Of a stretch of 64,000 bases of DNA, positions 341 through 52,430 are shown in pieces. This stretch comes from an uncultured Alphaproteobacteria bacterium (lineage in GTDB: Bacteria; Pseudomonadota; Alphaproteobacteria; Rs-D84). Position numbers and translations under genes: made by a program. Location: NCBI GenBank assembly GCA_947646585.1, contig CANSHD010000002.1, positions 203,614 through 267,613 on the forward strand, written 5' to 3'. The notes beneath the pieces are model-generated. The model was not told the origin of the DNA and made no database searches. It was given only the letters and a program-made list of their open reading frames with translations. The stretch's first letter is position 1. The number at the start of each line of letters is the position of its first letter.

Positions 341-1462
341 ATGGCAAAGAAAAACACAAAAACCAAGATTAAACCCTCTACAGACGATTTGATTGACAAT
401 GCAATCGCTCAGCAAAACTCGTGGATGGAAAACCGTCGCGCATTTGCACAGCGATTTTTGAAAAGTTTAAACATATTTGCGCGCCCGAATCCAAAGAAGG
501 CGGATGCGGCGTCCGCCGACAAATCTGAAAACCGCGGGTGGCGCCCGTACTGGTTCCCGATATTGTGCGCATTGGTCGTAATATTTGTGGCCGTTTGGGT
601 TGCGTTCTTTCATACGACAACGCATCGCGTTATTGTCGTTCCGGCGGTTCCCGACCCGGTGGTGCGCGCCATTGACACGGAAACAAAGCCCTCTTTCGAT
701 ATTGTTCGCATCGAACGCGGCGGCCAGATTGTCGTCGCCGGACGCTGGATTCCGCATCAGAACATTTCTATTTTAATCAACGGCAAAATCGTCGCGACCG
801 AGCGCACCGATTCCCGCGGCGAGTTCGTTTATTCGCCGACCCATCCGCTGGCGGCCGGCAATTACACGATTTCCTTGCTGGGGGTAAATCCGGACGTTCG
901 CAGCGAGGACAATGTTTTTGTATACATTTCGGAACAGGGATATAAAAATTCCATTTCTTTGTTAATGACACGCGACGGCAGCACCCTGCTCCAGGCGCCG
1001 ACCATGCTGGCCGACGGCGATTTGGTCGTTTCAAAAATTGATTATTTAAGCACGGGCCGCATCGTTGTGACCGGCAACGCGATGCCGCGTTTGCGCGTGT
1101 CGCTGACGCTGGGGGACAAATACATGGGCTTTGCGCGCGTGTCCGACCATCGTCATTTTGGCCTGGGGGCGGATGTCGGCGAATTAAAACCGGGTCAGGA
1201 ATACAGTCTGGCGGTGCGCCTGCATGACGGCGACGGACGCACGATTGCGACGGTGCGTCATAATTTTGTAATGCCGGAAATGACGGGCGACGACAATACG
1301 TATTACACGGTGCGCCGCGGCGACTGTCTGTGGATTATTGCGCGCAATTTTCTGCGCCGCGGGGTTTTATTCAGCATGATTGCCGAACGCAACAATATTG
1401 AAAATCCGGATTTGATTTATCCGAAGCAGCTGCTGCAGATTCCGGTTGACGAGTCGAAATAA
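341..1462 (+). CDS. membrane-anchored LysM peptidoglycan-binding protein with Ig-like repeats
   Basis: 373-aa ORF. One TM segment (WFPILCALVVIFVAVWVAFF). C-terminal LysM-like YTVRRGDCLWIIARNF...NPDLIYPKQLLQIP. Confidence 0.8.
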   Translation: MAKKNTKTKIKPSTDDLIDNAIAQQNSWMENRRAFAQRFLKSLNIFARPNPKKADAASADKSENRGWRPYWFPILCALVVIFVAVWVAFFHTTTHRVIVVPAVPDPVVRAIDTETKPSFDIVRIERGGQIVVAGRWIPHQNISILINGKIVATERTDSRGEFVYSPTHPLAAGNYTISLLGVNPDVRSEDNVFVYISEQGYKNSISLLMTRDGSTLLQAPTMLADGDLVVSKIDYLSTGRIVVTGNAMPRLRVSLTLGDKYMGFARVSDHRHFGLGADVGELKPGQEYSLAVRLHDGDGRTIATVRHNFVMPEMTGDDNTYYTVRRGDCLWIIARNFLRRGVLFSMIAERNNIENPDLIYPKQLLQIPVDESK

Positions 1463-2568: not shown

Positions 2569-2988
2569 ATGGCAACAGTTATCAGATTGGCACGTTATGG
2601 TGCGAAAAAGCGTCCGTATTACCACGTGGTTGTGACGGATTCCCGCAATGCGCGTAATTCCGGCAATGTTTTGGAAGTCGTTGGCAAATACGACCCGATG
2701 CAGCCGCGCGACAGCGAAAAGCGCGTTATGTTGAACCTGGATTTGGTAAAGTCTTGGTTGGCAAAGGGGGCGAAACCGTCCGACCGTGTTTACAAGTTCC
2801 TGGCGAATGCGGGCCTGGTTGCGAAAAAACCGGTTCCGGCTCAGACGAAAAAGCACCTGCAGTCTGAAAAGACACAGATGAAGATTAAGGACAAGGCGGA
2901 CAAGCTGGCCAAGGCTGCGGAAGAAAAAGCAGCGGCAGAGGCGGCGGCGAAAGCGGCCGCAGAAGCCCCGGCGGAATCTGCGGAATAA
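2569..2988 (+). CDS. rpsP: 30S ribosomal protein S16 with Ala/Lys/Glu-rich C-terminal extension
   Basis: MATVIRLARYGAKKRPYYHVVVTDSRNARNSG... Good RBS (AAGGAG). Conserved rpsP-rimM-trmD-rplS order. Confidence 0.95.
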   Translation: MATVIRLARYGAKKRPYYHVVVTDSRNARNSGNVLEVVGKYDPMQPRDSEKRVMLNLDLVKSWLAKGAKPSDRVYKFLANAGLVAKKPVPAQTKKHLQSEKTQMKIKDKADKLAKAAEEKAAAEAAAKAAAEAPAESAE

Positions 2989-3037
2989 TTTAATATGCCC
3001 GGGGATTTCCCCGGGTATATTAAAATGGGAGTATTTC

Positions 3038-3229
3038 ATGTCTAAATGTCCATATAATGACTCTGTTGAATGTGATAAAGAATTTCAGCAGAAGGAATTG
3101 ACGCGTCAGATGAATTTGGCGCTGCGCACGGGGATGTATTGGTTTAATACAACCCCGCAGGGTGTTTCATGCGCGGTTAAGCATTGGCAGTGCGCGCGTT
3201 TGGTTGCCTGTAACCAGGTACAGCGATAA
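3038..3229 (+). CDS. possible small Cys-containing protein inserted between rpsP and rimM
   Basis: 63-aa ORF with a GGGAG RBS 6 nt upstream. It follows the hairpin CCCGGGGATTTCCCCGGG, and its stop abuts the rimM ATG. No recognisable family. Confidence 0.3.
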   Translation: MSKCPYNDSVECDKEFQQKELTRQMNLALRTGMYWFNTTPQGVSCAVKHWQCARLVACNQVQR

Positions 3230-5326: not shown

Positions 5327-6286
5327 CTACCTCCCCTGGCCGTTGATTTTGTTGCAGCGCGCCTGCAGGGTCTCCAGTTTTGTCATAATTTCCGCCCATT
5401 GCGGCGGTACGCCCAAGAATTCCTCCCTCATCGCATCGTAATCCTGCTTGAGTTCAAGCAGGACGGCCGGCGCCGGCCGTAAAGACAGGTCTGCCGGAGA
5501 ATGTATGGCCGGGATGTTTTTTGTTGTGTAAATTTGCTGGTACAGAACCGTGTTTTGCAGCATATGCCGGGTGTCGCGCAAATTTACAAACGGCATCAAT
5601 GTCGCAACGTCATAATAGTGGCGCGACAAGAAAAATCTGTTTTTAGGTTTGCCAATCGTCGCAAAAGAATTTAATGCGAACATTTTATCCCAGAATGTTT
5701 GCTCGTACGCAACGGTCGGGATAACGCCCATCGGTTCCCTTGTGGAATACGGTGTAACGGCGCTGTAATTTATCGTATCTTTGTCATATTTTCGCGGAAT
5801 AATTTCAATGCATATATGCTGAAACATTCTGTTCAATGCCGATTGATACAGGACGTGCAACGTCGGATAAGACGTTTGCTGTTCCGGATTATGCAGTGCG
5901 CGCCATTCGCGGTCGTTCGACAGCATAAAGCGCTTGTCCTGATTTATCGCATAGTTTATGCGCGGCATCAGTACGTCAAATACAAATTCCTTGAAATTTG
6001 CCACGTGTTTTTTCAGGCGGCACTTGGACCGCGCCATCGGCAGTTCTTCAAACTCGTTCGTCGCCAGGTCGATATCGTGACTGGCGCGCTGGCATATGTT
6101 GTAAGATTTTCTAAGCGTTGCGCCGCCAGAAAACACCAGCGTGTCGAATGCCGACTTGTCTTCAAACAGTGCGTTAAGAATTTCGCATTCCATATAGTCG
6201 CACTCTGCCATAATCGGATTTGGCATGCTTTGGAAAATTTTTTGAGTTGTGGCGCTTTTTATAGACATATTTGTTTTATAGTACAT
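5327..6286 (-). CDS. AbiEii/AbiGii-like (DUF1814) nucleotidyltransferase
   Basis: FSGGATLRKSYNICQRASHDIDL resembles the GGTAL...R.S.DIDF core of AbiEii/MenT-type nucleotidyltransferases. No AbiEi-like gene lies upstream. Confidence 0.65.
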   Translation of the reverse strand: MYYKTNMSIKSATTQKIFQSMPNPIMAECDYMECEILNALFEDKSAFDTLVFSGGATLRKSYNICQRASHDIDLATNEFEELPMARSKCRLKKHVANFKEFVFDVLMPRINYAINQDKRFMLSNDREWRALHNPEQQTSYPTLHVLYQSALNRMFQHICIEIIPRKYDKDTINYSAVTPYSTREPMGVIPTVAYEQTFWDKMFALNSFATIGKPKNRFFLSRHYYDVATLMPFVNLRDTRHMLQNTVLYQQIYTTKNIPAIHSPADLSLRPAPAVLLELKQDYDAMREEFLGVPPQWAEIMTKLETLQARCNKINGQGR

Positions 6287-6361
6287 TGACGGGCTTTTGT
6301 CAAGTTTTGTTGATTTAAGAATTTGACATTACCGGCCGGCGGCGTTAATATGTAGTTCGGT

Positions 6362-6709
6362 ATGAAAAAATATATTTCTGCATTTTTTATGATTGGCGCC
6401 CTGCTGGCCGTAACGCCCGCAGACGCGTATGTTGAGCGCGATACCGCGGTTGTGCGCGTAATGAACAAGGCCGCCGGCAAGGCCCAGACAATAAAGGCGC
6501 CCGTCGGTCGCAAGGTTTCTTTTGAGAAGCTGGACTTGGTGGTGCGCACGTGCAAGCAGACGGATCCTTTTCAGGCTCAGGATTTTTTCATGTTCATAGA
6601 AATATCACAGGATTCCAAGATTTTCAGTGGCTGGATGAGCCATAACGAACCCGGCAATAATCCGTTGCAGCACCCTGATTACGACCTGTGGCTGGTGGGG
6701 TGCGAGTAA
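6362..6709 (+). CDS. DUF2155-like periplasmic protein
   Basis: Signal peptide. C-terminal ...FSGWM....NPLQHPDYDLWLVGC matches my memory of the alphaproteobacterial DUF2155 family. Confidence 0.7.
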   Translation: MKKYISAFFMIGALLAVTPADAYVERDTAVVRVMNKAAGKAQTIKAPVGRKVSFEKLDLVVRTCKQTDPFQAQDFFMFIEISQDSKIFSGWMSHNEPGNNPLQHPDYDLWLVGCE

Positions 6710-6713
6710 AGCG

Positions 6714-7115
6714 ATGGCCGATGTATATATTATAAATTTGTCCGGATTTATGCTGGGCACCGACAAAGATGTGCTGCAGCCTGGCCAGAAATGGCTGCCA
6801 TATGACACAGAGGTGTATGTCTGTCGCAACATTGATGTCGCAAAGCGTCTGTTACAGTTATCACAGCGCGGCTTTGTGGATGGGATAAACCCGGTTTGGA
6901 CGACGGTCTATCATGTCGTTGCGCCGATGGTAAAATGCACGCGCGCGGACAATGCAATGTTATGGACGCCCGACGCGTCGAAAATCGTCGTTGACCGTCT
7001 GGTGTTTCAACAAGCGCCGCACCAGTTGTCTGAGGCCGCATTGCTGGACAATGCCAAGGCGCAGATGGCGGCATTTATGGGACTAATGAATTTATCAAGG
7101 GAGAAGAAGAAATGA
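6714..7115 (+). CDS. hypothetical protein
   Basis: 133-aa ORF, tightly packed with its neighbours on the same strand. Confidence 0.5.
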   Translation: MADVYIINLSGFMLGTDKDVLQPGQKWLPYDTEVYVCRNIDVAKRLLQLSQRGFVDGINPVWTTVYHVVAPMVKCTRADNAMLWTPDASKIVVDRLVFQQAPHQLSEAALLDNAKAQMAAFMGLMNLSREKKK

Positions 7116-9244: not shown

Positions 9245-9265
9245 TAATGTGATATAATTACCGCT

Positions 9266-9757
9266 ATGAAAGACTATGTAGCAAGTTATGATGCCGCAAC
9301 CCGGCGGGTGTTGGAGAATGCGGCCAGAATAGACAAGTTTGCGCTGCCGCAAATTGACACGCCCTATTCTTTATATGATATCGCGTCGGTTTTGCGGAAA
9401 AAGTACAAGGACCATCTTTTCCGTGACAAATATGTCGGCGACATGCAGTTCCAGGGATTCACGCCATATCCAAAGGGATTTTGTGCGTTAAGCTCCATAT
9501 GTGTATACGAACTGTATGGCGGCGCGGATATCTGGGTGCCGTCGGCCATTCATTTGGGCGACTGTGAGTATGCGCCGGTGGTGTTTCTGCGTGACAAGGA
9601 ATTCGGTATTCCGTTCGACGCAACAGGCGACCAGTTTGCGCCGTTGCGTGTGCCGTATGAATTGGGTACGCCGATAAATCGCCCGATTGGCAAAATGCGC
9701 ACGCCGAACAAAGAAACTTTTATCAAACAAATAAAGCAAGAATTGGACAGACGTTAA
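9266..9757 (+). CDS. hypothetical protein
   Basis: 163-aa ORF whose stop abuts the xseA start. Confidence 0.55.
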   Translation: MKDYVASYDAATRRVLENAARIDKFALPQIDTPYSLYDIASVLRKKYKDHLFRDKYVGDMQFQGFTPYPKGFCALSSICVYELYGGADIWVPSAIHLGDCEYAPVVFLRDKEFGIPFDATGDQFAPLRVPYELGTPINRPIGKMRTPNKETFIKQIKQELDRR

Positions 9758-18541: not shown

Positions 18542-18570
18542 TTGTATTCCGCCGGCGATTGGCATATAAT
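18542..18570 (+). promoter_or_regulatory. candidate sigma70 promoter of leader A
   Basis: TTGTAT, 17-nt spacer, TATAAT. It sits immediately before the block conserved with leader B. Confidence 0.5.
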
Positions 18571-18574
18571 GCAT

Positions 18575-18816
18575 ATGCCTGCGGGTGTTCCGCAGGTGGG
18601 GCGTCAGAACCTCTGCCTTAGCGTCGGGATAAGATTCAACAGGCGCGCATTTCCGCGCCGATTTTATTATCACGGCGACAAATATACTCCTGAACAAACG
18701 GTTCAGGAGGGTTCGCGGAATATCCAATACGCGACGCAATTCTAAGGATTGTTCTGAACCTCCTGAACCACCAATGTTTGGTGGTTTTTTCATAAAACAT
18801 CAGGAGAAAAAGAACT
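18575..18816 (+). ncRNA. structured 5' leader A (candidate riboswitch or attenuator)
   Basis: About 240 nt, alignable along its length to the minus-strand leader at 22347..22585. Contains hairpin CCTGCGG-GTGTT-CCGCAGG, two hairpin-plus-T-run terminators and alternative pairings. Confidence 0.55.
18766..18790 (+). terminator. intrinsic terminator inside leader A
   Basis: AACCACCAA-TGT-TTGGTGGTTTTTT, 27 nt before the ATG at 18817. Confidence 0.65.
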
Positions 18817-19089
18817 ATGAAAAAAACTTTAGTGATTATATGTGGTGGCGTACTGTTTGCCGGTCCGGCAATGACAATGACGTGCAGCATTAGTTCGGTG
18901 CCGGCATCTTGCATAGCAAATACCGAAACTTGCAGTGGGGGATATTGTACAACCACCTATAAATATACCGCGGCCAGTCAAAAGTGCACATGCTCAGGCA
19001 ACGGATGCTGCACATGTGCATATTTATCAAATCCGTTGTGCACCCAATGCCCGACCTCGTTCAAAGGCGTGGAATGTCCATTATGCTAA
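18817..19089 (+). CDS. small secreted Cys-dense peptide (90 aa)
   Basis: AGGAG RBS and signal peptide MKKTLVIICGGVLFAGPAMT. The mature part of about 70 aa has about 15 Cys. Confidence 0.65.
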   Translation: MKKTLVIICGGVLFAGPAMTMTCSISSVPASCIANTETCSGGYCTTTYKYTAASQKCTCSGNGCCTCAYLSNPLCTQCPTSFKGVECPLC

Positions 19090-19107
19090 TCGGTTTGGGG
19101 GTATAAA

Positions 19108-19509
19108 ATGCGAAAGAATATTTTATTGGCGTGTGCGGTTGTGTCCGCAACAACAATCTCCAATGCTTTGGCGGACTGCAATCCATCGGGCACCAGCTGC
19201 AGCGCATGTACAACATACAGGTGCAATTCAGGTTATTACGGAACAGCAACATCTGGCAGTTCCGGCTGTACGGTCTGTCCGTCAAATGCAACATGCGCCG
19301 GCGGCAATGGTTCAACTTTTATATGCAACCAGGGGTATTATAAAAGCGGCTCTGCCTGTGCGCGCTGTCCGGCATCGGGCGGAGTGTACGGCACGACCAA
19401 GTCCACGGGGGCAACGTCCATAACGGCATGTTATATTCCGTCCGGAACCGCATTTACTGACACCGGTGGCAGTGGTTCGTACACAGGCGACTGTTATTAC
19501 ACCAATTAA
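19108..19509 (+). CDS. secreted cysteine-rich protein, family member P2
   Basis: Signal peptide and CxxGYY units. C-terminus is CARCPASGGVYGTTKSTGATSITACYIPSGTAFTDTGGSGSYTGDCYYTN. Confidence 0.8.
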   Translation: MRKNILLACAVVSATTISNALADCNPSGTSCSACTTYRCNSGYYGTATSGSSGCTVCPSNATCAGGNGSTFICNQGYYKSGSACARCPASGGVYGTTKSTGATSITACYIPSGTAFTDTGGSGSYTGDCYYTN

Positions 19510-19531: not shown

Positions 19532-21097
19532 TTAAAAATCAAATGACAGGGATAGTGTTGCGCTGTATGACATTCCCATATTGTCATGTAGCGCCCCTAT
19601 TCCGACATAAATAATCGCATCGTCTTCCGGCAAAGAAAGTCCAATTCGTGCATCGGCCTGCAGGCCGCCGTCGTTGTCTGAAATTATTCGGGCGTCATAT
19701 GTATAATTAATGTCTGTGGTTTTATGCGTATGGCGCGCAATGACACCGGCCCTAAGATTTATATCGGTTGAATGTTGTATAACATTTGCATAACGTGCCG
19801 CCAGCCCCACAATCGGCGTTAGCGTCATGTTATCTGCTACCAGAAATTTCGGCCCGGTGTCGGCATAAAAATCAGCGGCAAAGCCCGACGGGTCGGACGC
19901 GGTTGCGGCGCCCGATTGTAATACCGGCGTGGTGAACCGGGCCGCGGTTATGGTAATGCCGGAATCGGCAAAAATATGCGGCGCGTCATACCGGACATAT
20001 GCGTCACCGCCCGCCAGTTTGGCCGAATAATCATCGATACCGTCCGTGAAATTCATATCCGCCGCATGAATTGTAACCGATGCGCGCACCGGTTTGGCTG
20101 TGCCGGTGTTCAAGCCCGCCCTGATTCCGTATGCATCAATATTTTGACCGGTGATAATAAACGGTGCGATTTGCATTGGAGCCGGCACCCCGTCATCCGT
20201 GTGCATTGCGCCGACGTGTCTGTTAAATGTCTGTATGGGGCGGGCCAATGCGCGCGTGTTGATGCGCATAGATTTGTTCATTATGCGCCCCAGCGCGGGC
20301 ATGTCTGTCGCCCGGTCCAGACGTTGCAGCAGATTGTCATCGGGATTTATCGTACGCAGGGCGTTTAAAAATTCGCCCGTCTGATTTCCCATTATTTTAT
20401 AATAATCCGTTTCACGTGCCAATTCAGCGTACAAGGCGCCGCCGCGAATCACCGTGCGCAACGCATACAGCGGATTTATATCGTCGGCATGCAGATGCAT
20501 TGTGCCGCTGCCCGTGACACGCCAGAAAATCGGCGTGTTAAAATCAATGTCTGCCATTTTTATGTGCAGCTCGTTATCGCCGACCAACTCTATCGGCACC
20601 GGCATCGCACGCGACATAAGCATTATTTCGGGCGACAGAACAATTCCGGAATCGACCAGTATGACTTTGTCCGCGGCGGACGATATGCGCCGAATATCCG
20701 TCCACTGTAAATCGGCCGCCCTGTACACGATGATATTGTAGTTGTCGGCGACATTTATGTCCGTAATGTCATCGGGCGTGCGAATAATTTGCGTTAAGCT
20801 GGCGCTTGCGCCCAATGTAATTTCGCCGTCAATCGTGCCGCTGTTTTTAATATAAACATCACGGCCGTCCGCGACAAACACGTCGCCGGACAAAACGCCA
20901 TGGTTCTGCAGGTAAGATGATGCGGTAATGTTGATTTGATTAAAGTCCAGAAAAGCTCCACCGTCAACAACAGTGCTGTCCGCAATATTCAAGATATCGC
21001 CGTACATGTTGCTGTCAAAATATTCTGCCATGGCCGGCATAGGTATCAACATAATGCACAGCATAAAACGATGCTTCACCAATCCCCCCATCTCCAA
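19532..21097 (-). CDS. autotransporter-like outer-membrane protein
   Basis: 521 aa with signal peptide ...MLIPMPAMA and a repetitive passenger region. C-terminal beta-barrel-like alternating pattern ends ...SATLSLSFDF (terminal Phe). The exact start is ambiguous. Confidence 0.7.
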   Translation of the reverse strand: MEMGGLVKHRFMLCIMLIPMPAMAEYFDSNMYGDILNIADSTVVDGGAFLDFNQINITASSYLQNHGVLSGDVFVADGRDVYIKNSGTIDGEITLGASASLTQIIRTPDDITDINVADNYNIIVYRAADLQWTDIRRISSAADKVILVDSGIVLSPEIMLMSRAMPVPIELVGDNELHIKMADIDFNTPIFWRVTGSGTMHLHADDINPLYALRTVIRGGALYAELARETDYYKIMGNQTGEFLNALRTINPDDNLLQRLDRATDMPALGRIMNKSMRINTRALARPIQTFNRHVGAMHTDDGVPAPMQIAPFIITGQNIDAYGIRAGLNTGTAKPVRASVTIHAADMNFTDGIDDYSAKLAGGDAYVRYDAPHIFADSGITITAARFTTPVLQSGAATASDPSGFAADFYADTGPKFLVADNMTLTPIVGLAARYANVIQHSTDINLRAGVIARHTHKTTDINYTYDARIISDNDGGLQADARIGLSLPEDDAIIYVGIGALHDNMGMSYSATLSLSFDF

Positions 21098-21135
21098 TGG
21101 AGGTCAGATTAGCACATAAGAATATTTTCTTAAAG

Positions 21136-21741
21136 TTAAAATTGACGTTCGCGACATATGCGCCGCAAAAAAGCCTGAAGACGCGATGATATTATGGTCT
21201 CGTCCGCGCTGCATTTTACAAGAAAATCCATGTCCAGGCCCGCGCGCAGAAAATCCAGCGGCGTGCACGTATTTGTGACACGCACACGATTGTCGTCTGG
21301 CATGTTGGCGCGGATGCGGGCGATATCAAAATTATTTTCCGGCGGGATAAAATACAGTGTCTTGAACGAATAATCACGCCCGTAACCGTTTCTCAGGAAC
21401 CAGTCGCGCAATTGTGCGGCATATTTCGGCTGAATGACGTCATAGACCAGATTCGTGTCCATGTGGTTTAGTATTTCGGATTCCGGAACACCGTATAACC
21501 ATTTGGGCTTGCCGGGCGTCCAAAAGGCCTCGTTCACCCACAGGCGGGTTGCCAGTGCTGCGGTGTCAAAATATTGTTCGTCGCGGAAATAATATTCACG
21601 ACCATCGACCTCGCCCGGGCGCATGGGGCGTGTTGTCGCCGAAACCAGCTTATGAAAATGACCCGCCGGCAGGTGATGCTCTATAAAATAGGATTTTCCA
21701 CTGCCCGACAGGCCACAGCAACACAGAACTGTCTTTTTCAT
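21136..21741 (-). CDS. guanylate-kinase-like P-loop kinase
   Basis: GLSGSGKS P-loop and SATTRPMRPGEVDGREYYF (Gmk signature TTRxxRxGExxGxxYxF). The C-terminal half is divergent. Confidence 0.65.
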   Translation of the reverse strand: MKKTVLCCCGLSGSGKSYFIEHHLPAGHFHKLVSATTRPMRPGEVDGREYYFRDEQYFDTAALATRLWVNEAFWTPGKPKWLYGVPESEILNHMDTNLVYDVIQPKYAAQLRDWFLRNGYGRDYSFKTLYFIPPENNFDIARIRANMPDDNRVRVTNTCTPLDFLRAGLDMDFLVKCSADETIISSRLQAFLRRICRERQF

Positions 21742-21803
21742 TATCGCCCCCTTATGCTTTCATATGCCTTATTGTAAATAAAAATGCATTCGGGGGCAAC
21801 GGT

Positions 21804-22346
21804 TTAGTTTTTATAATAGCAGTTTCCGGTATATTCAAACGAGCCTGTCGAATCGCTGGACTTGGTGCCCGCCGGGATATAACACTCTGTTATCGCCGTG
21901 GCGCCGGGCCCCGACGTGGTGCCTGCAACGCCACCCGATGACGGACATGCGGTGCAACCACTGCAGCTGGTTTTTAAATTGTTCAGTTTTGCCGTGCCGT
22001 AATACCCCTTTTGACAGCGCGCGGTTATATCGTATGTGCAAACATTGTTGACGCATCCTTTGCTTGCCACCTTGTCGCAACCACCGCCCATGTCGGTAAC
22101 CGTTTCGCTGTTGCATGTGGTGGGGTCACATACTATCGGATCGATTGGATCAACGACGCCTACATTGCATGGCTCGCAACAAGTGGCATCATACCTTATA
22201 CATTCGCCATATACGGGCCCGTTTACGTCCTGAGAAATCCTTCGACATTCGAAACATGTTATTGTTGGGTCGACAAAGACTGCGTATGCATTTCCAATCA
22301 ATGTCACACCTGCACCGATTGCGGATATTATTATTTTGGTTTTCAT
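21804..22346 (-). CDS. secreted cysteine-rich protein, family member P3
   Basis: Start moved to ATG 22346 (AGGAG RBS; MKTKIIISAIGAGVTLIGNAYA). C-terminus is CTACPSSGGVAGTTSGPGATAITECYIPAGTKSSDSTGSFEYTGNCYYKN. Confidence 0.8.
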   Translation of the reverse strand: MKTKIIISAIGAGVTLIGNAYAVFVDPTITCFECRRISQDVNGPVYGECIRYDATCCEPCNVGVVDPIDPIVCDPTTCNSETVTDMGGGCDKVASKGCVNNVCTYDITARCQKGYYGTAKLNNLKTSCSGCTACPSSGGVAGTTSGPGATAITECYIPAGTKSSDSTGSFEYTGNCYYKN

Positions 22347-22653: not shown

Positions 22654-24735
22654 TTAATCTTCCAAGAAACTGCGCAATTTTCTGGCGCGCGTCGGGTGCT
22701 TTAACTTGTTAAGCGCCTTTTGCTCTATCTGGCGGATACGTTCACGCGTAACACCGATATATTCGCCAACCTCTTCCAGTGTGCTGGTTTTGTTGGTGCT
22801 CATACCGAAACGCTGGCGCAGAACGGTTTCCTCTTTCGGGTCCAGTTCCGACAAAATCTGTGTAACGATTTTGCGCAGGTTTTTCTGGGCCGCCGATGTG
22901 AACGGATTCTTGGCCGTTTCGTCCGCGATGATTTCAATACGGCTGCTGTCGTCTTCGGTGCCGACGGGCGCCTCCAGCGAAATCGGCTTTAAGTTGACTT
23001 TCATCGCCTTGTGTATCTTGTCCACCGGCAGATAGATAATCTTTGACAATTCTTCGGCGGTCGGATTGCGGCCGTATTTGTGCATAAACTGGCGCGACGC
23101 ACGCTGAATCTTGTGTATGTTGTCAATCATGTGCACCGGGATACGAATTGTACGCGCCTGGTCGGCGATACTGCGTGATATGCCCTGCTGAATCCAGTTG
23201 GTCGCATATGTCGAGAATTTGTTACCCAGACGATAATCAAACTTGTCAACCGCCTTCATCAAACCGATATTACCGTCCTGAACCAAGTCCGAGAAATCAA
23301 GGCCCAGACCACGGTTGCTGGATTTTTTTGCAAATTTGATAACAAGACGCAGGTTGGCTTCTATCATTTCGCGCTTTGCACGGGCGGCCTCGGTCTGGCC
23401 GCGGCGGACCAGTTCCACAACCTTTTTGTATTCCGCGGTCGGCTGGCCGGTCTCGTTGGCGATAGCGGTGATGTCGTCCTGAATCTTTAAGATATCCTTT
23501 TCGTGCTTTTTGGCAAAGTTCGCCCAGACGGCATTCTTTGATTTCGCCAGCTTTTTTACCCAGTTGCGGTTCAATTCATTGCCCGCATATTCGGCCAGGA
23601 AGTCTTCGCGCTTAATCTTGTTTGCCAGCGCCAGACGCAGCAGCTTGCCCTCAAGCCCCATCAACAACTGGTCGCGCTGTGTCAGGCGTTCCAGAATTTC
23701 GGCATTGCGGTCGTCGTTTAAGCGAATCTTGCTGACGTGTTCAAACAATTCCAGACGCATTTTGGCGTATTTCTTTTCCAGCGCCTCGTCCGGCGTATTG
23801 GAGGTCAACAGATTTTCCAGACGTTTCGCCTGCAGTTTCTGCATGCTGTTGAATGTCTTTTTAATCTTGGCGAACAGTTCCGTCACCATCGGCATTAAAG
23901 CCTCTTCCATGACAGGAATCGGAACGCCCGACGTGCCGCGCGGCGTTTCTTCTTTCTTTACGCCGTCTTCGTCATCCGCATCTTCGTCCTCGTCGTCTTC
24001 GTCCGATGCGGTGGATTCCTCCAAGTCGTCCAGTTCGTCGTCATCCAGTTCATCCACATGCTCAACGCCCTTGGATTTCAAGGCCTCTGACAATGCGGCC
24101 AGGGATTTCTGTTCGGCGTCACTGGAATACATAACCTCAAGATTCACGATATAGCGCAGGCGAATGTCCTCGTTTAACAACTGCTGATACCAATCCAGCA
24201 TTGCCTGAATTGTCATCGGGCTTTCGCACAGGCCGTATACCATCAGGCGCGACGCGGCCTCTATACGCTGGGCGATTGCAACCTCGCCCGCCGCGGTTAA
24301 CAACTGAACCGTGCCGATTTGTTTTAAATATGACTGTACGGAATCCTGAACGCCCAAAACCAGACTGCCGGTCTGGCTGCGTTCCAGCTGTTTGGCGAAA
24401 TGTTCATAATCGTCGTCGTTGACGTCAACCTGTTCGGCGTCCGCGTTTAACAGATTACGTGTCTTATCGCGCGGCTCGTCCGAGTCGTCGTCATAATATT
24501 TCCCCATGTCCTGCGGGAAATTATCCGACTCCAGGATTTCCAATCCCAAATCCTGCTGAAAGAAATCCAGGACTTCGTCCTGTTCTTCGGCCGGAATTTC
24601 GTCGGCCTCGGTTGCGGCGTCAAAGTCCATCTGGGACATATAGCCAACCTCGGCGGCGCTGGTCGCAAGTTTTTGTAAATTTTCCGGCAGAGACTCTATC
24701 AACAATCTTGTTGCGTCGTCCAGTTTTTTCGCCAT
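22654..24735 (-). CDS. rpoD: RNA polymerase sigma-70 factor RpoD
   Basis: Start set at ATG 24735 (MAKKLDD). Acidic insertion. Regions 2-4 include [18 protein letters not shown]-like [18 protein letters not shown] and [20 protein letters not shown]. Confidence 0.95.
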
Positions 24736-24769
24736 GAACAAACCCCTGAATTTCTAAGGTTATAAAGAA

Positions 24770-25349: not shown

Positions 25350-26777
25350 TTATGCCTTTTTGATGATTTTTGCCCCGTCTTTGGTATCAACCACACTCCA
25401 ACCGGCCGCATCTATCTGCGCACGCAGTTCGTCGGCGCGCGCCCAATCACGGGCGGCCTTGGCCGCGGCGCGGGCGTTTGCCAGTGCCAAAATGTCCGCC
25501 GGCACATCCGCGGCTTCAAGTTCCTTTAACTTTTGCGCGGCCGGAATTAAGCGCAGGCCCAACAGGCGGTCGATAAATTCAACCAAAGCGTATTTGGTAT
25601 CCGCGTCAACAGACGGGCTTTTTAACAGTTCCTGAACGGCAACCAAGGCCTCGGCCGTTTTTAAATTATCCGACACCGCCCCCAATATTTTATCATGCCA
25701 TTCGTCAAACACGGCGGAATCTATGGCATTGGATGCTTTTGTATCAATTATGTCCGCAACGCGACGGACCAGATTTTTATATCCGTTTGCGGCGGCGTCC
25801 AGCCCCTCCCACGAGAAGGCCAGCTGGGACTGGTAATGTCCCATCAGCAACATATAGCGATATGCCATCGGGTCGTATCCGCGATTTTTTAACACCGACA
25901 GGGTTAAAAACTCACCGCTGGATTTGGACATTTTTTCGCCGCTTTTATCCACCAAAAATTCAGAATGCACCCAGTATTTCACCCATGGCGCACCGGTAAT
26001 CGGTTCGCTTTGCGCGATTTCATTTGCATGATGCACGCGCGACAGGTCAACGCCGCCGGTATGAATATCGAAATGCGCCCCCAGCAGCGCCATGGACATT
26101 GCGCTGCATTCTATGTGCCAGCCGGGGAATCCGACACCCCAGGGACTTGCCCATTCCATCTGGCGCTTTTTATCCGTGGGCGAAAATTTCCACAATGCAA
26201 AGTCTGTGGGATTGCGTTTGGCATCATTGAACTCCACACGGGCGCCCGCACGGTTTCCGCCCAACGCCCCGCCGGTCAGCGCGCCGTATGCCGCAAATTT
26301 GGACGTGTCGTAATAAATACCGTCGCCCGGAATTTCATATGTATACCCCAAATCGACAAGTTTCTGCACCAGGTCAATCTGCTGCTGTATGTATTCGGTT
26401 GCACGCGGGCGCGCAGACGGTTCCAACAAATTCAAATCGGCCGAATCCCGCAGAAATTCATCCGTATAAAATTTTGCAACATCCCAGACAGACTTGTTTT
26501 CGCGGGCGGCGCCCTTTTCCATTTTGTCTTCGCCGGAATCGTCGTCGTCACTGGTTAAATGACCGACGTCCGTTATGTTCATAACATTGAACACCTCGTA
26601 TCCGTTTTCCAGAAACATGCGCTTTAACAAATCGGCCAAAACAAAACTGCGCAGGTTGCCGATATGCGTGTAATGATACACCGTCGGACCGCATGAATAA
26701 AAGCCCACATGCCCCGGTGTCAAGGGTTGAAAGTCTTCCATTTTTCGCGACATTGTATTGAAAAGTCTGATATTCAT
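25350..26777 (-). CDS. cysS: cysteine--tRNA ligase
   Basis: FYSCGPTVYHYTHIGNLR (HIGH region) and KMSKSSG (KMSKS). Confidence 0.95.
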   Translation of the reverse strand: MNIRLFNTMSRKMEDFQPLTPGHVGFYSCGPTVYHYTHIGNLRSFVLADLLKRMFLENGYEVFNVMNITDVGHLTSDDDDSGEDKMEKGAARENKSVWDVAKFYTDEFLRDSADLNLLEPSARPRATEYIQQQIDLVQKLVDLGYTYEIPGDGIYYDTSKFAAYGALTGGALGGNRAGARVEFNDAKRNPTDFALWKFSPTDKKRQMEWASPWGVGFPGWHIECSAMSMALLGAHFDIHTGGVDLSRVHHANEIAQSEPITGAPWVKYWVHSEFLVDKSGEKMSKSSGEFLTLSVLKNRGYDPMAYRYMLLMGHYQSQLAFSWEGLDAAANGYKNLVRRVADIIDTKASNAIDSAVFDEWHDKILGAVSDNLKTAEALVAVQELLKSPSVDADTKYALVEFIDRLLGLRLIPAAQKLKELEAADVPADILALANARAAAKAARDWARADELRAQIDAAGWSVVDTKDGAKIIKKA

Positions 26778-42581: not shown

Positions 42582-43916
42582 CTAAAACCGCCGCATGATT
42601 TCAATTTCCACGCGGTGTTTATCAAATTCGCTTGTTGGAACATTGGAATCTCGCCGGGTGTATGTATATGACACCGCTGGAATCAGATTGCACCAGTTTA
42701 ATTTATTGTTTGACACGCGAACATATGCCGACCATACCGTGTCATGACGTGTTTTCTGTTCAAAGGCATTGTCTATAACAAAATACCGCGACGCGTGATA
42801 TTTTGTGCTTGTTAAATCCAACCGCGCCAGCACCGCGAACCCATAACGAAATTCCCCGAAATACCCGACTGAATATGTCATGCTGTCGTTCCCGTATGCC
42901 CGAACGTGCGTATTTTCCTGACCGAACCGCAGACCGGCTAAAACAAAACTCTTGTTGTTCAAATAATACCGGGGTTGCAGTGACACACTCCAATCATACC
43001 CACGCAAGGCATCGTTTATATAATCCGTATGATACTGGTTGCGGTACAGACTTGCACCACCACCCAGCAACCAACGCCGCCCAAGCTGCCAGTTTGTATC
43101 CAAACGCAACCCGTATGAATAGTTGTAAAAATCCCCCGCATACCACCGCGCAACCGTTACGGGTTGCAGGCTTATCTCGCCACTGTCAAACACGTATCGC
43201 GGCCCGGTTGCAAGATACAGCGAATAATCGTCAAAATCACCGCCCGGAAAATCCAACACATTCACGCCGGCTGTTGTACGAATCCCCAGTCGTCGGCTTA
43301 GCCGTAAATAATAATCTCCGTCGGCGTTCAAACGAACCCCAACACCGTGTTTGCGCGTTTCCAGTGGCCGGCACAGCGGGCCGAATATTGTATTTATACA
43401 TTCTTCATTTTCCGTGCCTGCATTGTTGATATTTGAATCCGGCACAATGCCAAAACCGAAATCCAAAGACCAATTTTTGCGCATGCGTATCAGGGTCAAA
43501 TATCTGTCTATATTCTCGCGCACTGCGGCGGGCAAACCCGACGTTGCACGCACAAATTCAAAATGGAACTGCGCCGCTTGAAAATCGCCGTTCATAAAAT
43601 AAGCACGCGCCAGTTCTAGGCGCACCCGTGACAGGTTCGGATTTGCGTCCACAATCGCACGATATGCGCCAATCGCAGCACTGTAATCCCCACGCGCCAT
43701 TGCGATATTGCCCAGTTGGAATTGTGATTCTGTGCGCATATCTGCGCTTGCACTATGCGATATGGCAGAATATATCGGTTGCGCAGCGTCTAAATCACCA
43801 TGCGCCGCCATATTATCGGCCACAGCCAACAGTTCTGATTCCGTCAGGTGTTGTTCAGCCCCTGCTGAGGTGGCGGCCAATAATACCGCAACCCCAGCAT
43901 ACAATACCACGCGCAT
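42582..43916 (-). CDS. Slam-like (DUF560) outer-membrane protein: N-terminal TPR plus C-terminal beta-barrel
   Basis: Signal peptide and TPR-like repeats (GDYSAAIGAYRAIVDANPN...ARAYFMNGDF). The barrel region starts with WSLDFGFGIVPDSNINNA. The protein ends ...VEIEIMRRF. Confidence 0.65.
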   Translation of the reverse strand: MRVVLYAGVAVLLAATSAGAEQHLTESELLAVADNMAAHGDLDAAQPIYSAISHSASADMRTESQFQLGNIAMARGDYSAAIGAYRAIVDANPNLSRVRLELARAYFMNGDFQAAQFHFEFVRATSGLPAAVRENIDRYLTLIRMRKNWSLDFGFGIVPDSNINNAGTENEECINTIFGPLCRPLETRKHGVGVRLNADGDYYLRLSRRLGIRTTAGVNVLDFPGGDFDDYSLYLATGPRYVFDSGEISLQPVTVARWYAGDFYNYSYGLRLDTNWQLGRRWLLGGGASLYRNQYHTDYINDALRGYDWSVSLQPRYYLNNKSFVLAGLRFGQENTHVRAYGNDSMTYSVGYFGEFRYGFAVLARLDLTSTKYHASRYFVIDNAFEQKTRHDTVWSAYVRVSNNKLNWCNLIPAVSYTYTRRDSNVPTSEFDKHRVEIEIMRRF

Positions 43917-43919
43917 TTA

Positions 43920-45197
43920 TCAGTCCTTTACCGCCCCAAAGGAGAAATTTATATCACGATAATAACCGTCCTGCATTTGCACATTACTTGTTCCAACTGT
44001 GCCAACTGTTTCTGTGGCTGGCAGAAAAGCATCGGGGCCATAATATTGTATATCTTTGGTGTAGATACTTTTGGGATTCTCAACTTTGAATTTTGGGTCT
44101 GTTGTGGGGTTGCCGACATATACCAATTCATTGTCTTTTGTATACACCTTGTACCACCCAGCATCTGTAAAATCCATGACCAAGTTCTCTGTACCGTTAT
44201 CAGCATTAAAAGATAACTTGACCGTGCCGTCTGCTGTGAATCCTGGCATGTCGTCAATTTCTATAAACTCATAACCTGAACTTGAGCCGACTTTATTTGT
44301 TTTCCCTGTTGATATTCCAACAAATGCCTTGCCAGAATAAGTGTGATTCCCCGTAATTACTCCAATGTCCGCCAATGTGTGCATATCAACCGCACGCGCC
44401 GGGTCGCCAGATTTCCAGCCCGCAAAGGTATAAACAGAATAAGGGTGTCCATAGGCTGTTTTGGGGATAATACGCTCCCAGTACCCAAAATCTGAAAATC
44501 GTAGCGGAACATTTGAATTCTTACTCCCTACTGTGAACTCTGCTCGCCCGGCATTGCCGTTATAGGAAAATTCTTTTACAAACTTGCCGTCCGTAGAGTT
44601 TTTTAGGTCAAAAATTATTTCTGGCTCTGAATCATTTTCCAACAAACAACCGTTTATATCCCTACATATAACAGTTATTTCTTTACCTTGGTCTGCATGC
44701 GATGCACAGCCACCAGGCAAATCACATTGAGACCTATACCATTCTTGTTTCCCTGATGCGTAATTAGTAAATTTATAATAATATTCCCCATAATTATATG
44801 ACAAATCACAACCGGATTCTTCTTGACATGTACTGGTATATGTATATTGGTATGGTCGCAATCGTTGGATTCGTAGTTCCTCATTTTCTTTATCAAAAAC
44901 ACCGGCAATACGATATGGCTCATTTGTACTCGTAGAAAAAGTCCCCATTGATACAGTTAGTTTTTTACTGTCCGGAACATTCGGGTATTTTATATTATCA
45001 CTTGGCTGTTGAGTGTTATCGCCGGGCTTTTCTGTGGTATTATCGCCACCGGGCTGTTCTCCAGGTTTTGTTGTGGTGCCGCCACTGATTCCGGCACTGC
45101 TTCCTATATTATATTTTGCACCACCGCCCCCATGGCCGCCGCCATTGTTGCATGCGCACAACGATACCAACATCGCCATAAAAACATATTTACGCAT
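43920..45197 (-). CDS. surface lipoprotein candidate with TbpB/fHbp-like C-terminal barrel
   Basis: Lipobox MAMLVSLCAC followed by a Gly-rich linker. The C-terminus ...GTVKLSFNADNG...YYGPDAFLPATETVGTVG...INFSFGAVKD resembles TbpB-type lobes. It lies immediately upstream of the Slam-like gene. Confidence 0.6.
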   Translation of the reverse strand: MRKYVFMAMLVSLCACNNGGGHGGGGAKYNIGSSAGISGGTTTKPGEQPGGDNTTEKPGDNTQQPSDNIKYPNVPDSKKLTVSMGTFSTSTNEPYRIAGVFDKENEELRIQRLRPYQYTYTSTCQEESGCDLSYNYGEYYYKFTNYASGKQEWYRSQCDLPGGCASHADQGKEITVICRDINGCLLENDSEPEIIFDLKNSTDGKFVKEFSYNGNAGRAEFTVGSKNSNVPLRFSDFGYWERIIPKTAYGHPYSVYTFAGWKSGDPARAVDMHTLADIGVITGNHTYSGKAFVGISTGKTNKVGSSSGYEFIEIDDMPGFTADGTVKLSFNADNGTENLVMDFTDAGWYKVYTKDNELVYVGNPTTDPKFKVENPKSIYTKDIQYYGPDAFLPATETVGTVGTSNVQMQDGYYRDINFSFGAVKD

Positions 45198-45417
45198 CTC
45201 TCTCCCCCTTTTTGTTGTTTTGTTTACTATTTATGCTTTGAAAAACTAGCCAGCCAAACACAATGCCACCAAACAACAATATGATTTGGAAACATTCCTG
45301 TGCGTCACTCCATTGACTGATTGAAAAACACAACGCCGCAAGGGTAATCATGTACGCCATGTTTTCTTTACTTATTTTGGGCGCCACTGTACTTCTGGGT
45401 GACTGATTATCTGACAT
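45190..45417 (-). CDS. small membrane protein (75 aa)
   Basis: ATG 45417 is preceded by AAGGAG. Two hydrophobic segments. It overlaps the lipoprotein start by 8 nt. Confidence 0.45.
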   Translation of the reverse strand: MSDNQSPRSTVAPKISKENMAYMITLAALCFSISQWSDAQECFQIILLFGGIVFGWLVFQSINSKQNNKKGERDA

Positions 45418-45758
45418 TTGTATCTCCTTATTGCAAAACAAAAACCGCCAAAGGAATGGCGGTCGGGCGTTTTCAAAATCATACGATAAATGACCCTGTT
45501 GCTTTCGGTCAGGCCTATTATATAACAACAGACACCCGACCTTGCGGCCAGGCATAATCGGATTACGACGCAACACACGCCGTATCGTATGGGTTTTGAA
45601 AGACCCCGAACCCAATTCCCATTGGATTCATTTGCATTATATCAGGAATTTTGCCCGTTGTAAATACCGACGGACCAAACAAAAGGTACTCATACGGATT
45701 TTGTGGGGGGATACGGTGTACGTTGTGTATATTTTATGATTTTTTTAGTAATTCATGT

Positions 45759-50545: not shown

Positions 50546-52430
<1,885 letters not shown>

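Follow-up and report, generated by a model that had tools for sequence, protein, structure and literature searches.

The window analysed here, 64,000 nucleotides of DNA from an uncultured gut alphaproteobacterium (GenBank assembly GCA_947646585.1, contig CANSHD010000002.1, forward-strand positions 203,614 to 267,613; all coordinates count from its first letter unless another contig is named), carries two operons that begin with genes for cysteine-rich proteins, each preceded by a related leader. Operon A (18800..19509, plus strand) starts with a Shine-Dalgarno sequence at 18800-18807 and encodes a 90-residue Cys-rich signal-peptide protein (18817-19089) and a 133-residue Cys-rich protein (19108-19509). 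Operon B (19532..22346, minus strand) encodes a 180-residue Cys-rich protein (about 22346-21804), a P-loop guanylate-kinase-like protein (21741-21136) and a protein of about 520 residues with a weak match to the autotransporter beta-domain (21097-19532). Leaders A (18577-18790, plus strand) and B (22584-22377, minus strand) each contain three mutually complementary segments (seg1, seg2 and seg3), the third of which overlaps an intrinsic terminator. A preliminary description of this DNA had interpreted the segments as a three-way switch, and covariation in homologous leaders supports this interpretation. It covered just the 3' third of what, judged by sequence comparison, is an element of about 210 nucleotides with a conserved promoter, six helices and two strongly covarying long-range helices; the latter, and a third copy in the window (leader C), lay outside it.

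All four segments that had been named in leader A are present. Seg1 (CTCCTGAAC, in the RNA CUCCUGAAC) lies at 18687-18695, one position upstream of where it had been placed (18688-18696), and is the 5' arm of a hairpin, P4, the putative anti-antiterminator; seg2 (GGTTCAGGAGG, in the RNA GGUUCAGGAGG), correctly placed at 18700-18710, can serve as the 3' arm of P4 or as the 5' arm of the antiterminator; and seg3 (CCTCCTGAACC, in the RNA CCUCCUGAACC), likewise correct at 18759-18769, is the 3' arm of the antiterminator, its last four bases opening the terminator stem. The terminator itself (AACCACCAA-TGT-TTGGTGGTTTTTT, transcribed as AACCACCAA-UGU-UUGGUGGUU and followed by a U-run) ends at 18790 and starts at 18766 rather than at 18767. 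Leader B has the same layout on the minus strand, inside the ranges first given for it (seg1 CTCCTGAC at 22475-22468, seg2 GGTCAGGAGG at 22465-22456, seg3 CCTCCTGACC at 22408-22399, terminator at 22402-22377), and the one-base difference between A and B, GAAC to GAC, is indeed mirrored in all three segments. The complementarity exceeds chance: the window holds seven copies of CTCCTGA or its complement where 1.63 would be expected, seven being reached in none of 100 shuffles, and all of these copies fall within leaders A and B, the seventh, previously unmentioned, being TCAGGAG at 18800-18806, the Shine-Dalgarno sequence of gene A. The two leaders are 80% identical over about 300 nucleotides, from the shared promoter onward, and folding compared with shuffled sequence gives z = -6.0 for A and -4.7 for B. 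Promoter A (18542..18570, plus strand) has a -35 element TTGTAT (18542-18547), a 17-nucleotide spacer and a -10 element TATAAT (18565-18570); promoter B (22620-22592, minus strand) has its -35 at 22620-22615 and its -10 at 22597-22592. The -35 and -10 columns stand at a constant distance from the first helix in about 30 homologs, and in A and B the start codon follows the terminator by only 26–30 nucleotides; the region is therefore a leader, as had been proposed.

About 35 homologous leaders come from metagenomes and metagenome-assembled genomes (given L numbers here). A first scan of genome contigs with the pattern GGGTGTTCCGCNNGTGGGG gave 118 loci, nearly all chance matches in GC-rich genomes, and one real leader (L097, 97% identical to A). 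A second route, from a search with the gene B protein to the contigs that encode its relatives, led to leaders in L123/L124, L125 and L120, while a metagenome scan with CAATTC-N6-ATTG-N5-AACCTCCTG gave 34 loci, 28 with a leader and about 25 distinct. Distant protein homologs added L160, L163 and three copies in L168; only the leaders reached through proteins are free of pattern bias. Leader C, a third and divergent copy, was found by the covariance model of the antiterminator state described below (28.2 bits). The preliminary description had held that the alternative helices are functional, and had named loss of the three-way complementarity in further homologs as a finding that would refute this; the complementarity is kept, through at least eight sequence versions.

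To quantify the pairing, a covariance model of the 3' half was built for each of the two states, and pairs were counted on 33 distinct aligned leaders. P4 (seg1:seg2) is paired in 97.8% of cells with 5 of its 7 pairs changed on both sides; the corresponding values are 96.3% and 6 of 10 for the antiterminator (seg2:seg3), 90.5% and 7 of 9 for the terminator stem, and 99.4% and 2 of 5 for the stem of hairpin P6. None of 500 shuffles reaches the observed covariation values, and sliding the partners by 1–3 columns leaves 22–54% pairing. When segments are swapped between leaders, the seg2:seg3 duplex changes from a cognate mean of -21.3 kcal/mol to -18.4 kcal/mol (0 of 5000 permutations match) and seg1:seg2 from -15.5 to -12.8 kcal/mol, the permutation tests being made on 27 distinct triples without correction for kinship among the leaders. 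The diagonal likewise dominates the cross-matrix of seg2 against seg3. Seg2:seg3 is stronger than seg1:seg2 in all 27 triples, and the seg2 bases left unpaired in P4 are conserved and pair with seg3 alone (columns 28, 29 and 37 are GC in 25, 31 and 32 of the 33 leaders). A variable position tracks across seg1, seg2 and seg3 from A/U/A to G/C/G or, with a wobble, G/U/G, and the indels in the segments form the series GAAC, GAC, GC. In leaders that were not chosen on seg3 the triples read CUCCAAC / GUUGGAG / CCUCCAACC (L160 and L168a), CCCUGA / GGUCGGGGAG / CUCCCCGACC (L163), CUCCACC / GGUUGGAG / CUCCAACC (L168c) and CCUGGCC / GGUCGGGUG / CGCCCGACC (leader C). As in known attenuators, A, B and C have a GC-rich hairpin with a U-run shortly before the start codon, the antiterminator shares bases with the terminator stem and the anti-antiterminator with the antiterminator, both being under selection.

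From 5' to 3' the element consists of P1, P2 (with strand a in its loop), strand b, P3, P4, P5, P6 (with strand b' in its loop), strand a', AA, seg3 and the terminator. P1 (18577..18597 in leader A, GCCUGCGG / CCGCAGGU) is paired in 90.8% of cells across the family, 7 of its 8 pairs changing on both sides. P2 (18598..18613) pairs GGGG (18598-18601) with CCUC (18610-18613) around strand a, UCAGAAC (18604-18610); in its GGGG/CCNC stem the pair at columns 25-38 is GC 19 times, GU 6, AU 3 and UA 2 with zero mismatches, and the variants GAGG/CCUC and GUGG/CCAC compensate locally. Pairing of this GGGG with the CCUC of seg3, which appears in the minimum free energy (MFE) structure and would extend the long-range helix, mismatches in five sequences, and we prefer the local P2. 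Strand b (CCUUAG, 18616..18621) is followed by P3 (18621..18679), a stem of variable length whose tip (18642-18668) is a terminator-like GC hairpin with a U-run. As a universal first terminator this tip was rejected, being the end of a variable stem that is missing in several members; in the main-family leaders L131, L140, L151 and L158 P3 is shortened to a small hairpin without a U-run. The A/U-rich loop of P5 (18713..18734, UCGCG / CGCGA) is conserved across the family, and an ops/RfaH-like GGCGGTAG in the clade of L126 proved to be a part of the covarying P5 stem that is not conserved elsewhere. P6 (18737..18751, CAAUU / GAUUG), whose stem reads CUAU/AUAG, GAUA/UAUC or UCAU/AUGA in divergent leaders, holds strand b' (CUAAGG, 18742-18747) in its loop, and strand a' (GUUCUGA, 18751..18757) forms a pseudoknot with the P2 loop. 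In all 30 leaders helix a:a' is fully (100%) paired, and 5 of its 6 pairs covary. Helix b:b' is a perfect helix of 6–7 base pairs, again in all 30, and its 3' strand occurs in 19 distinct versions; swapping partners changes its energy from a cognate -6.7 to -1.0 kcal/mol (0 of 3000 permutations). Since both long-range helices use a hairpin loop, the core would amount to a double pseudoknot provided that P2 and P6 keep their stems.

The same parts are found in leader B (P1 22584-22564, a 22557-22551, b 22545-22540, P3 22540-22485, P5 22453-22433, P6 22430-22416, a' 22416-22410) and in leader C, which occupies about 45437..45643 on the minus strand. There the -10 element lies at 45643-45636, P1 at 45628-45609, strand a at 45601-45595, strand b at 45590-45583, seg1 at 45552-45546, seg2 at 45541-45533, P5 at 45531-45496, P6 at 45493-45479, strand a' at 45477-45471, seg3 at 45469-45461 and the terminator at 45464-45440, and its MFE structure has the architecture of A and B (z = -6.2). 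Operon C (42582..45417, minus strand) encodes a 75-residue membrane protein (45417-45190), a 425-residue lipoprotein (45197-43920) and a surface lipoprotein assembly modifier (Slam, 43916-42582; PF04575 SlipAM, E = 3e-34).

How would such a leader act? We consider it probable that each copy is a cis-acting conditional terminator leader RNA and a distant, extended relative of sRNA-Xcc1 (Rfam RF02221). Transcribed from its own sigma-70-type promoter, the leader would set whether RNA polymerase stops at the intrinsic terminator 26–30 nucleotides ahead of the start codon, through three mutually exclusive helices: seg1:seg2 (P4) as predicted anti-antiterminator, seg2:seg3 as predicted antiterminator, and the terminator stem that takes up the 3' end of seg3. 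P4 would sit inside a multi-helix core closed by a:a' (the P2 loop with the strand 5' of seg3) and b:b' (the strand 3' of P2 with the P6 loop). With the core docked and P4 intact, seg3 would be left free, the terminator would form and the operon would be off, which is the predicted ground state; should docking or P4 fail, seg3 would displace seg1 from seg2, the terminator could not form and polymerase would read through. In 26 of 30 members, A and B among them, the MFE structure combines P4 and both long-range helices with the terminator, and in three more this state lies within 1 kcal/mol of the MFE. This kind of switch is already known: S-box/SAM-I leaders and the PyrR-controlled pyr leaders of Bacillus work with a terminator, an antiterminator and an anti-antiterminator. 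They share with the present leaders the competition of three helices, an anti-antiterminator placed inside a larger folded sensor domain and an antiterminator that is intrinsically stronger than the anti-antiterminator. They differ in that there is no sequence or Rfam similarity, the genes regulated here are non-metabolic, and the core here is closed by two long-range helices between loop and strand. The predicted helices are short and easily mutated, and the model is therefore directly testable.

The RNA itself is a new, extended relative of a known and mechanistically obscure family. In Rfam 15 leader A has no match even at E ≤ 10, and a scan of the whole window returned neither A nor B; leader C and L163 score 38.9 and 37.5 bits with RF02221 (E about 1e-5), below the gathering score of 53. 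The Rfam consensus of sRNA-Xcc1, with its closing helix, two hairpins, 6-nucleotide linker and tail, corresponds to seg2:seg3, P5, P6, a' and the start of the terminator, and the RF02221 architecture, a closing helix of about 9 base pairs around two hairpins and a linker of 6–7 nucleotides, is present in A, B, C and the family. As the closing helix of this independently curated structure is seg2:seg3, the Rfam structure is the antiterminator of the preliminary description. sRNA-Xcc1 was first reported from an integron cassette of Xanthomonas campestris and is annotated in Shiga toxin (Stx) phages, APSE phages and Xylella; in integron cassettes it stands upstream of symE (bioRxiv 10.1101/2025.06.18.660453). 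A true member in an Escherichia coli prophage (L170, 79.8 bits) lies upstream of a BRO-N gene, and its relatives in Stx phages, Aaphi23 and Pmp3 lie directly upstream of the antirepressor (ant) gene in 6 of 6 phage records. These phage copies also carry a 5' domain with covarying a:a' (the counterpart of CUCCAAAA, CUCAAAA/UUUUGAG; UGAACA/UGUUCA; UCGAAA/UUUCGA) and b:b' (UGCAAAG/CUUUGCA, GCAAGUAG/CUACUUGC, CAAACAG/CUGUUUG, CCAAAAA/UUUUUGG, CUUCAAAG/CUUUGAAG) as well as a seg1-like copy of seg3, and the model of the main, alphaproteobacterial family matches them weakly in return. True sRNA-Xcc1 members thus resemble our leaders in standing directly upstream of a same-strand gene. They differ in that the Rfam model of about 87 nucleotides, typed 'Gene; sRNA', is without the 5' domain, the long-range helices, seg1 and the switch, in that no U-run follows seg3 in the E. 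coli prophage copy whereas the alphaproteobacterial copies have a canonical terminator, and in that the downstream genes here encode surface proteins as opposed to antirepressors or symE. The conserved promoter lies about 125 nucleotides upstream of the closing helix, at which an sRNA-Xcc1 of about 88 nucleotides would start. The Rfam family therefore appears to be the antiterminator half of a cis-regulatory leader of about 200 nucleotides that also precedes antirepressor genes of Stx phages; in the literature on sRNA-Xcc1 we found neither a larger structure nor a switch described, and a comparison of its Rfam consensus with plasmids gave no match. In phage Lyz12581Vzw (L173) a second leader-like element (1316-1438, plus strand) with its own seg1, seg2 and seg3 (CCCCGA / UGUCGGGAGGG / GCCUCCCGGCA) precedes the next antirepressor gene, in tandem with the first. 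L170 also has a match to ohsC_RNA just upstream of its leader (1272-1347, plus strand; 44.5 bits, below the gathering score of 50).

Several points weigh against a conditional terminator. The covariance-model alignments are biased toward the structure to which they were fitted, while the swap tests are independent of alignment; most homologs were found with a pattern that fixes AACCTCCTG, a part of seg3, and the P6 arms, and conservation there is partly selected; and changes of seg2 inside GGAGG (L130, L143 and L141) are compensated by seg1, not by seg3. In the full leader the terminator state is on average 12 kcal/mol more stable than the best antiterminator state, and in transcripts ending just past seg3 the margin on the terminator side still averages 6.6 kcal/mol (range -3 to +12), both values assuming that the long-range helices and the antiterminator exclude each other, an assumption valid only for nested structures. 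Should the two be able to form together, the balance at the decision point would tip toward the antiterminator; otherwise it may be only transient or require a factor. In view of these energetics we infer that off is the default state. sRNA-Xcc1 moreover accumulates in Xanthomonas as an RNA of about 88 to about 100 nucleotides on Northern blots (PMC2996969), and an 89-nucleotide sRNA-Xcc1 entry in enterohaemorrhagic E. coli is abundant and barely covered by ribosomes (PMC5331693), which fits a stable small RNA product. The EDL933 coordinates of that entry fall on the hok/sok locus in the RefSeq assembly, the assemblies being different, and were set aside. Could the element then be a stand-alone, trans-acting small RNA with a constitutive terminator, seg2:seg3 being its native closing helix and the downstream genes incidental? 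The Rfam typing and these two reports speak for it, as do the single-stranded CCUCCUG between a' and the terminator, which resembles an anti-Shine-Dalgarno seed, and a few metagenome copies without a close downstream open reading frame. Such an RNA would, however, leave unexplained why seg1 tracks seg2 and why seg3 overlaps the terminator. Its CCUCC-like seed is not conserved (CGCCCGACC in leader C); in A, B, C and most homologs a same-strand reading frame with a Shine-Dalgarno sequence begins about 17–50 nucleotides past the terminator with no intervening promoter, and a gene in the same orientation lies directly downstream in the phage, integron and alphaproteobacterial contexts alike (bioRxiv 10.1101/2025.06.18.660453). 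We regard this explanation as decidedly unlikely. Still less probable is mainly translational control, in which seg3 (CCUCCUG) would pair with the downstream Shine-Dalgarno sequence and seg2 would be the anti-anti-Shine-Dalgarno. In leader A, TCAGGAG at 18800-18806 matches seg1 and seg3 as a perfect complement, and in the MFE structure of leader B seg3 is paired to CCAGGAG around the terminator hairpin; but the downstream Shine-Dalgarno sequences vary (AAGGAAGG, GGGGG, GGAGA) and their match to CCUCC is only generic, seg3 of leader C (CGCCCGACC) has no complement in AAGGAGA, and it is the terminator with its U-run that is conserved and covaries. The Shine-Dalgarno sequence was for the same reasons, generic matches and the misfit of leader C, dropped as a conserved fourth partner of seg3. 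Attenuation by a leader peptide of the trp type, or complementarity that came about by chance when A and B recently duplicated, has a negligible probability in our view: the 1:2, 2:3, 3:4 topology is that of classical attenuators, and A and B are paralogs with 80% identity, yet the open reading frames across seg1 differ in frame between A and B and show no similarity beyond the shared DNA, P4 loops of 3, 4, 5, 8, 9 and 13 nucleotides together with indels of 1–2 nucleotides exclude a conserved coding frame, and the complementarity persists in leaders of very different sequence. A leader peptide was accordingly discarded, and the T-box (RF00230) gives no Rfam match even at E ≤ 10.

A more serious competitor comes from phages. 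C4 of phages P1 and P7 and IsrK of Gifsy-1 are leader-embedded RNAs that control antirepressor or anti-Q genes. They resemble our leaders in that two short elements, a hairpin loop and an adjacent strand, pair with sites (here a' and b') further down the transcript, in having an internal terminator-like hairpin, and in the position of sRNA-Xcc1 relatives upstream of phage ant genes; they differ in that the pairing here encloses a terminator switch as opposed to masking a ribosome-binding site. By analogy, the 5' module (P1, loop a, b and the P3 hairpin with its U-run) would be released as a short antisense RNA and would act through a:a' and b:b' on its own read-through transcripts, in cis or in trans, giving autoregulation without a metabolite. 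This is an unlikely explanation, though one with several points in its favour. The GC hairpin with a U-run at the P3 tip is found in A and B, in the phage copies and in most main-family members; paralogs in one genome (A, B and C in the window; a, b and c in L168) have orthogonal a/a' and b/b', cognate address duplexes reaching -5 to -11 kcal/mol and non-cognate ones staying mostly above -4; a spread on phages and integrons favours a self-contained regulator; and the same design upstream of phage antirepressor genes occupies the genetic position of C4 and IsrK (PMC4825925). Against it, the U-run is missing in L131, L140, L151, L158, L160, L168a and leader C and, where present, is base-paired within the lower part of P3; a and b are no more variable than the P1 stem, so that hypervariability may be neutral drift; the Rfam models of C4 (RF01695) and IsrK (RF01394) give no match; and a module in the same transcript would dock constitutively unless processed off. 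A wider interpretation is conceivable if doubtful: sRNA-Xcc1, instead of being a free-standing small RNA, would represent the 3' part of a modular and widespread riboregulator that is addressed to itself, the 5' module of which recognises its own 3' switch via paralog-specific address helices a:a' and b:b'. If true, each copy would autoregulate its own operon alone, be it a surface operon of gut Alphaproteobacteria, an antirepressor of Stx or other phages, or an integron symE.

For the conditional terminator that we prefer, an RNA-only or general factor is the favoured input, for example self-titration by the 5' module or transcription speed, given that phages and integrons carry the same design; second in rank would be a small molecule or ion, and third a dedicated protein. 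The complex conserved fold and the conserved unpaired bases are compatible with a riboswitch. The downstream genes indicate no metabolite, and since surface-protein operons, phage antirepressors and an integron toxin share the design, a shared metabolite is hard to picture.

That the downstream genes encode extremely Cys-rich secreted proteins, as had been noted, is true of operons A and B and does not extend to the family. Most copies precede, at about 17–50 nucleotides after the terminator, a reading frame that has a Shine-Dalgarno sequence and whose product resembles a signal peptide at its N-terminus, and the proteins are diverse (Cys-rich, YadA-anchor, SKAYVD-motif), many having 0–2 cysteines; a Cys-rich link as a family-wide rule is thereby ruled out, and the family's downstream genes, as far as their predicted products tell, are those of varied exported or surface proteins. 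The gene order of operon B recurs in L119-L124. Much of the cell surface would be under predicted gating by such leaders, namely autotransporter, YadA-type adhesin, Slam-dependent lipoprotein and Cys-rich secreted operons. The element is a large covarying leader RNA whose copies A and B are missed by Rfam 15 and of which uncultured gut Alphaproteobacteria have several copies per genome, and it offers a structural and mechanistic frame for sRNA-Xcc1, which is annotated in many genomes and phages and linked to virulence regulators.

Some observations concern individual copies and their surroundings. The three L168 leaders lie within 9.6 kb of one contig, at 2947-3132 (plus strand), 5984-6196 (plus strand) and 9255-9440 (minus strand) of that contig, each ahead of a small exported protein; the gene call P0018 there (6001-6858) begins inside a leader, and its annotated start is probably wrong. 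In the Logan contigs L119 and L120-L122 the assembly breaks inside the leader, 47–96 nucleotides ahead of the gene, a pattern that fits a repeat present in multiple copies in these genomes. The Cys-rich C-terminal domain of the operon B protein is related to PF07699 (Ephrin_rec_like) in distant homologs. The housekeeping genes cysS (25350-26777, minus strand) and rpoD (22654-24741, minus strand) flank the locus; leader B begins directly after the rpoD terminator, and the order rpoD, leader, gene is also found in L123. A two-piece (permuted) alphaproteobacterial transfer-messenger RNA (167 bits), which assigns the window to the Alphaproteobacteria, lies elsewhere in it, at 52072-52429 (plus strand).

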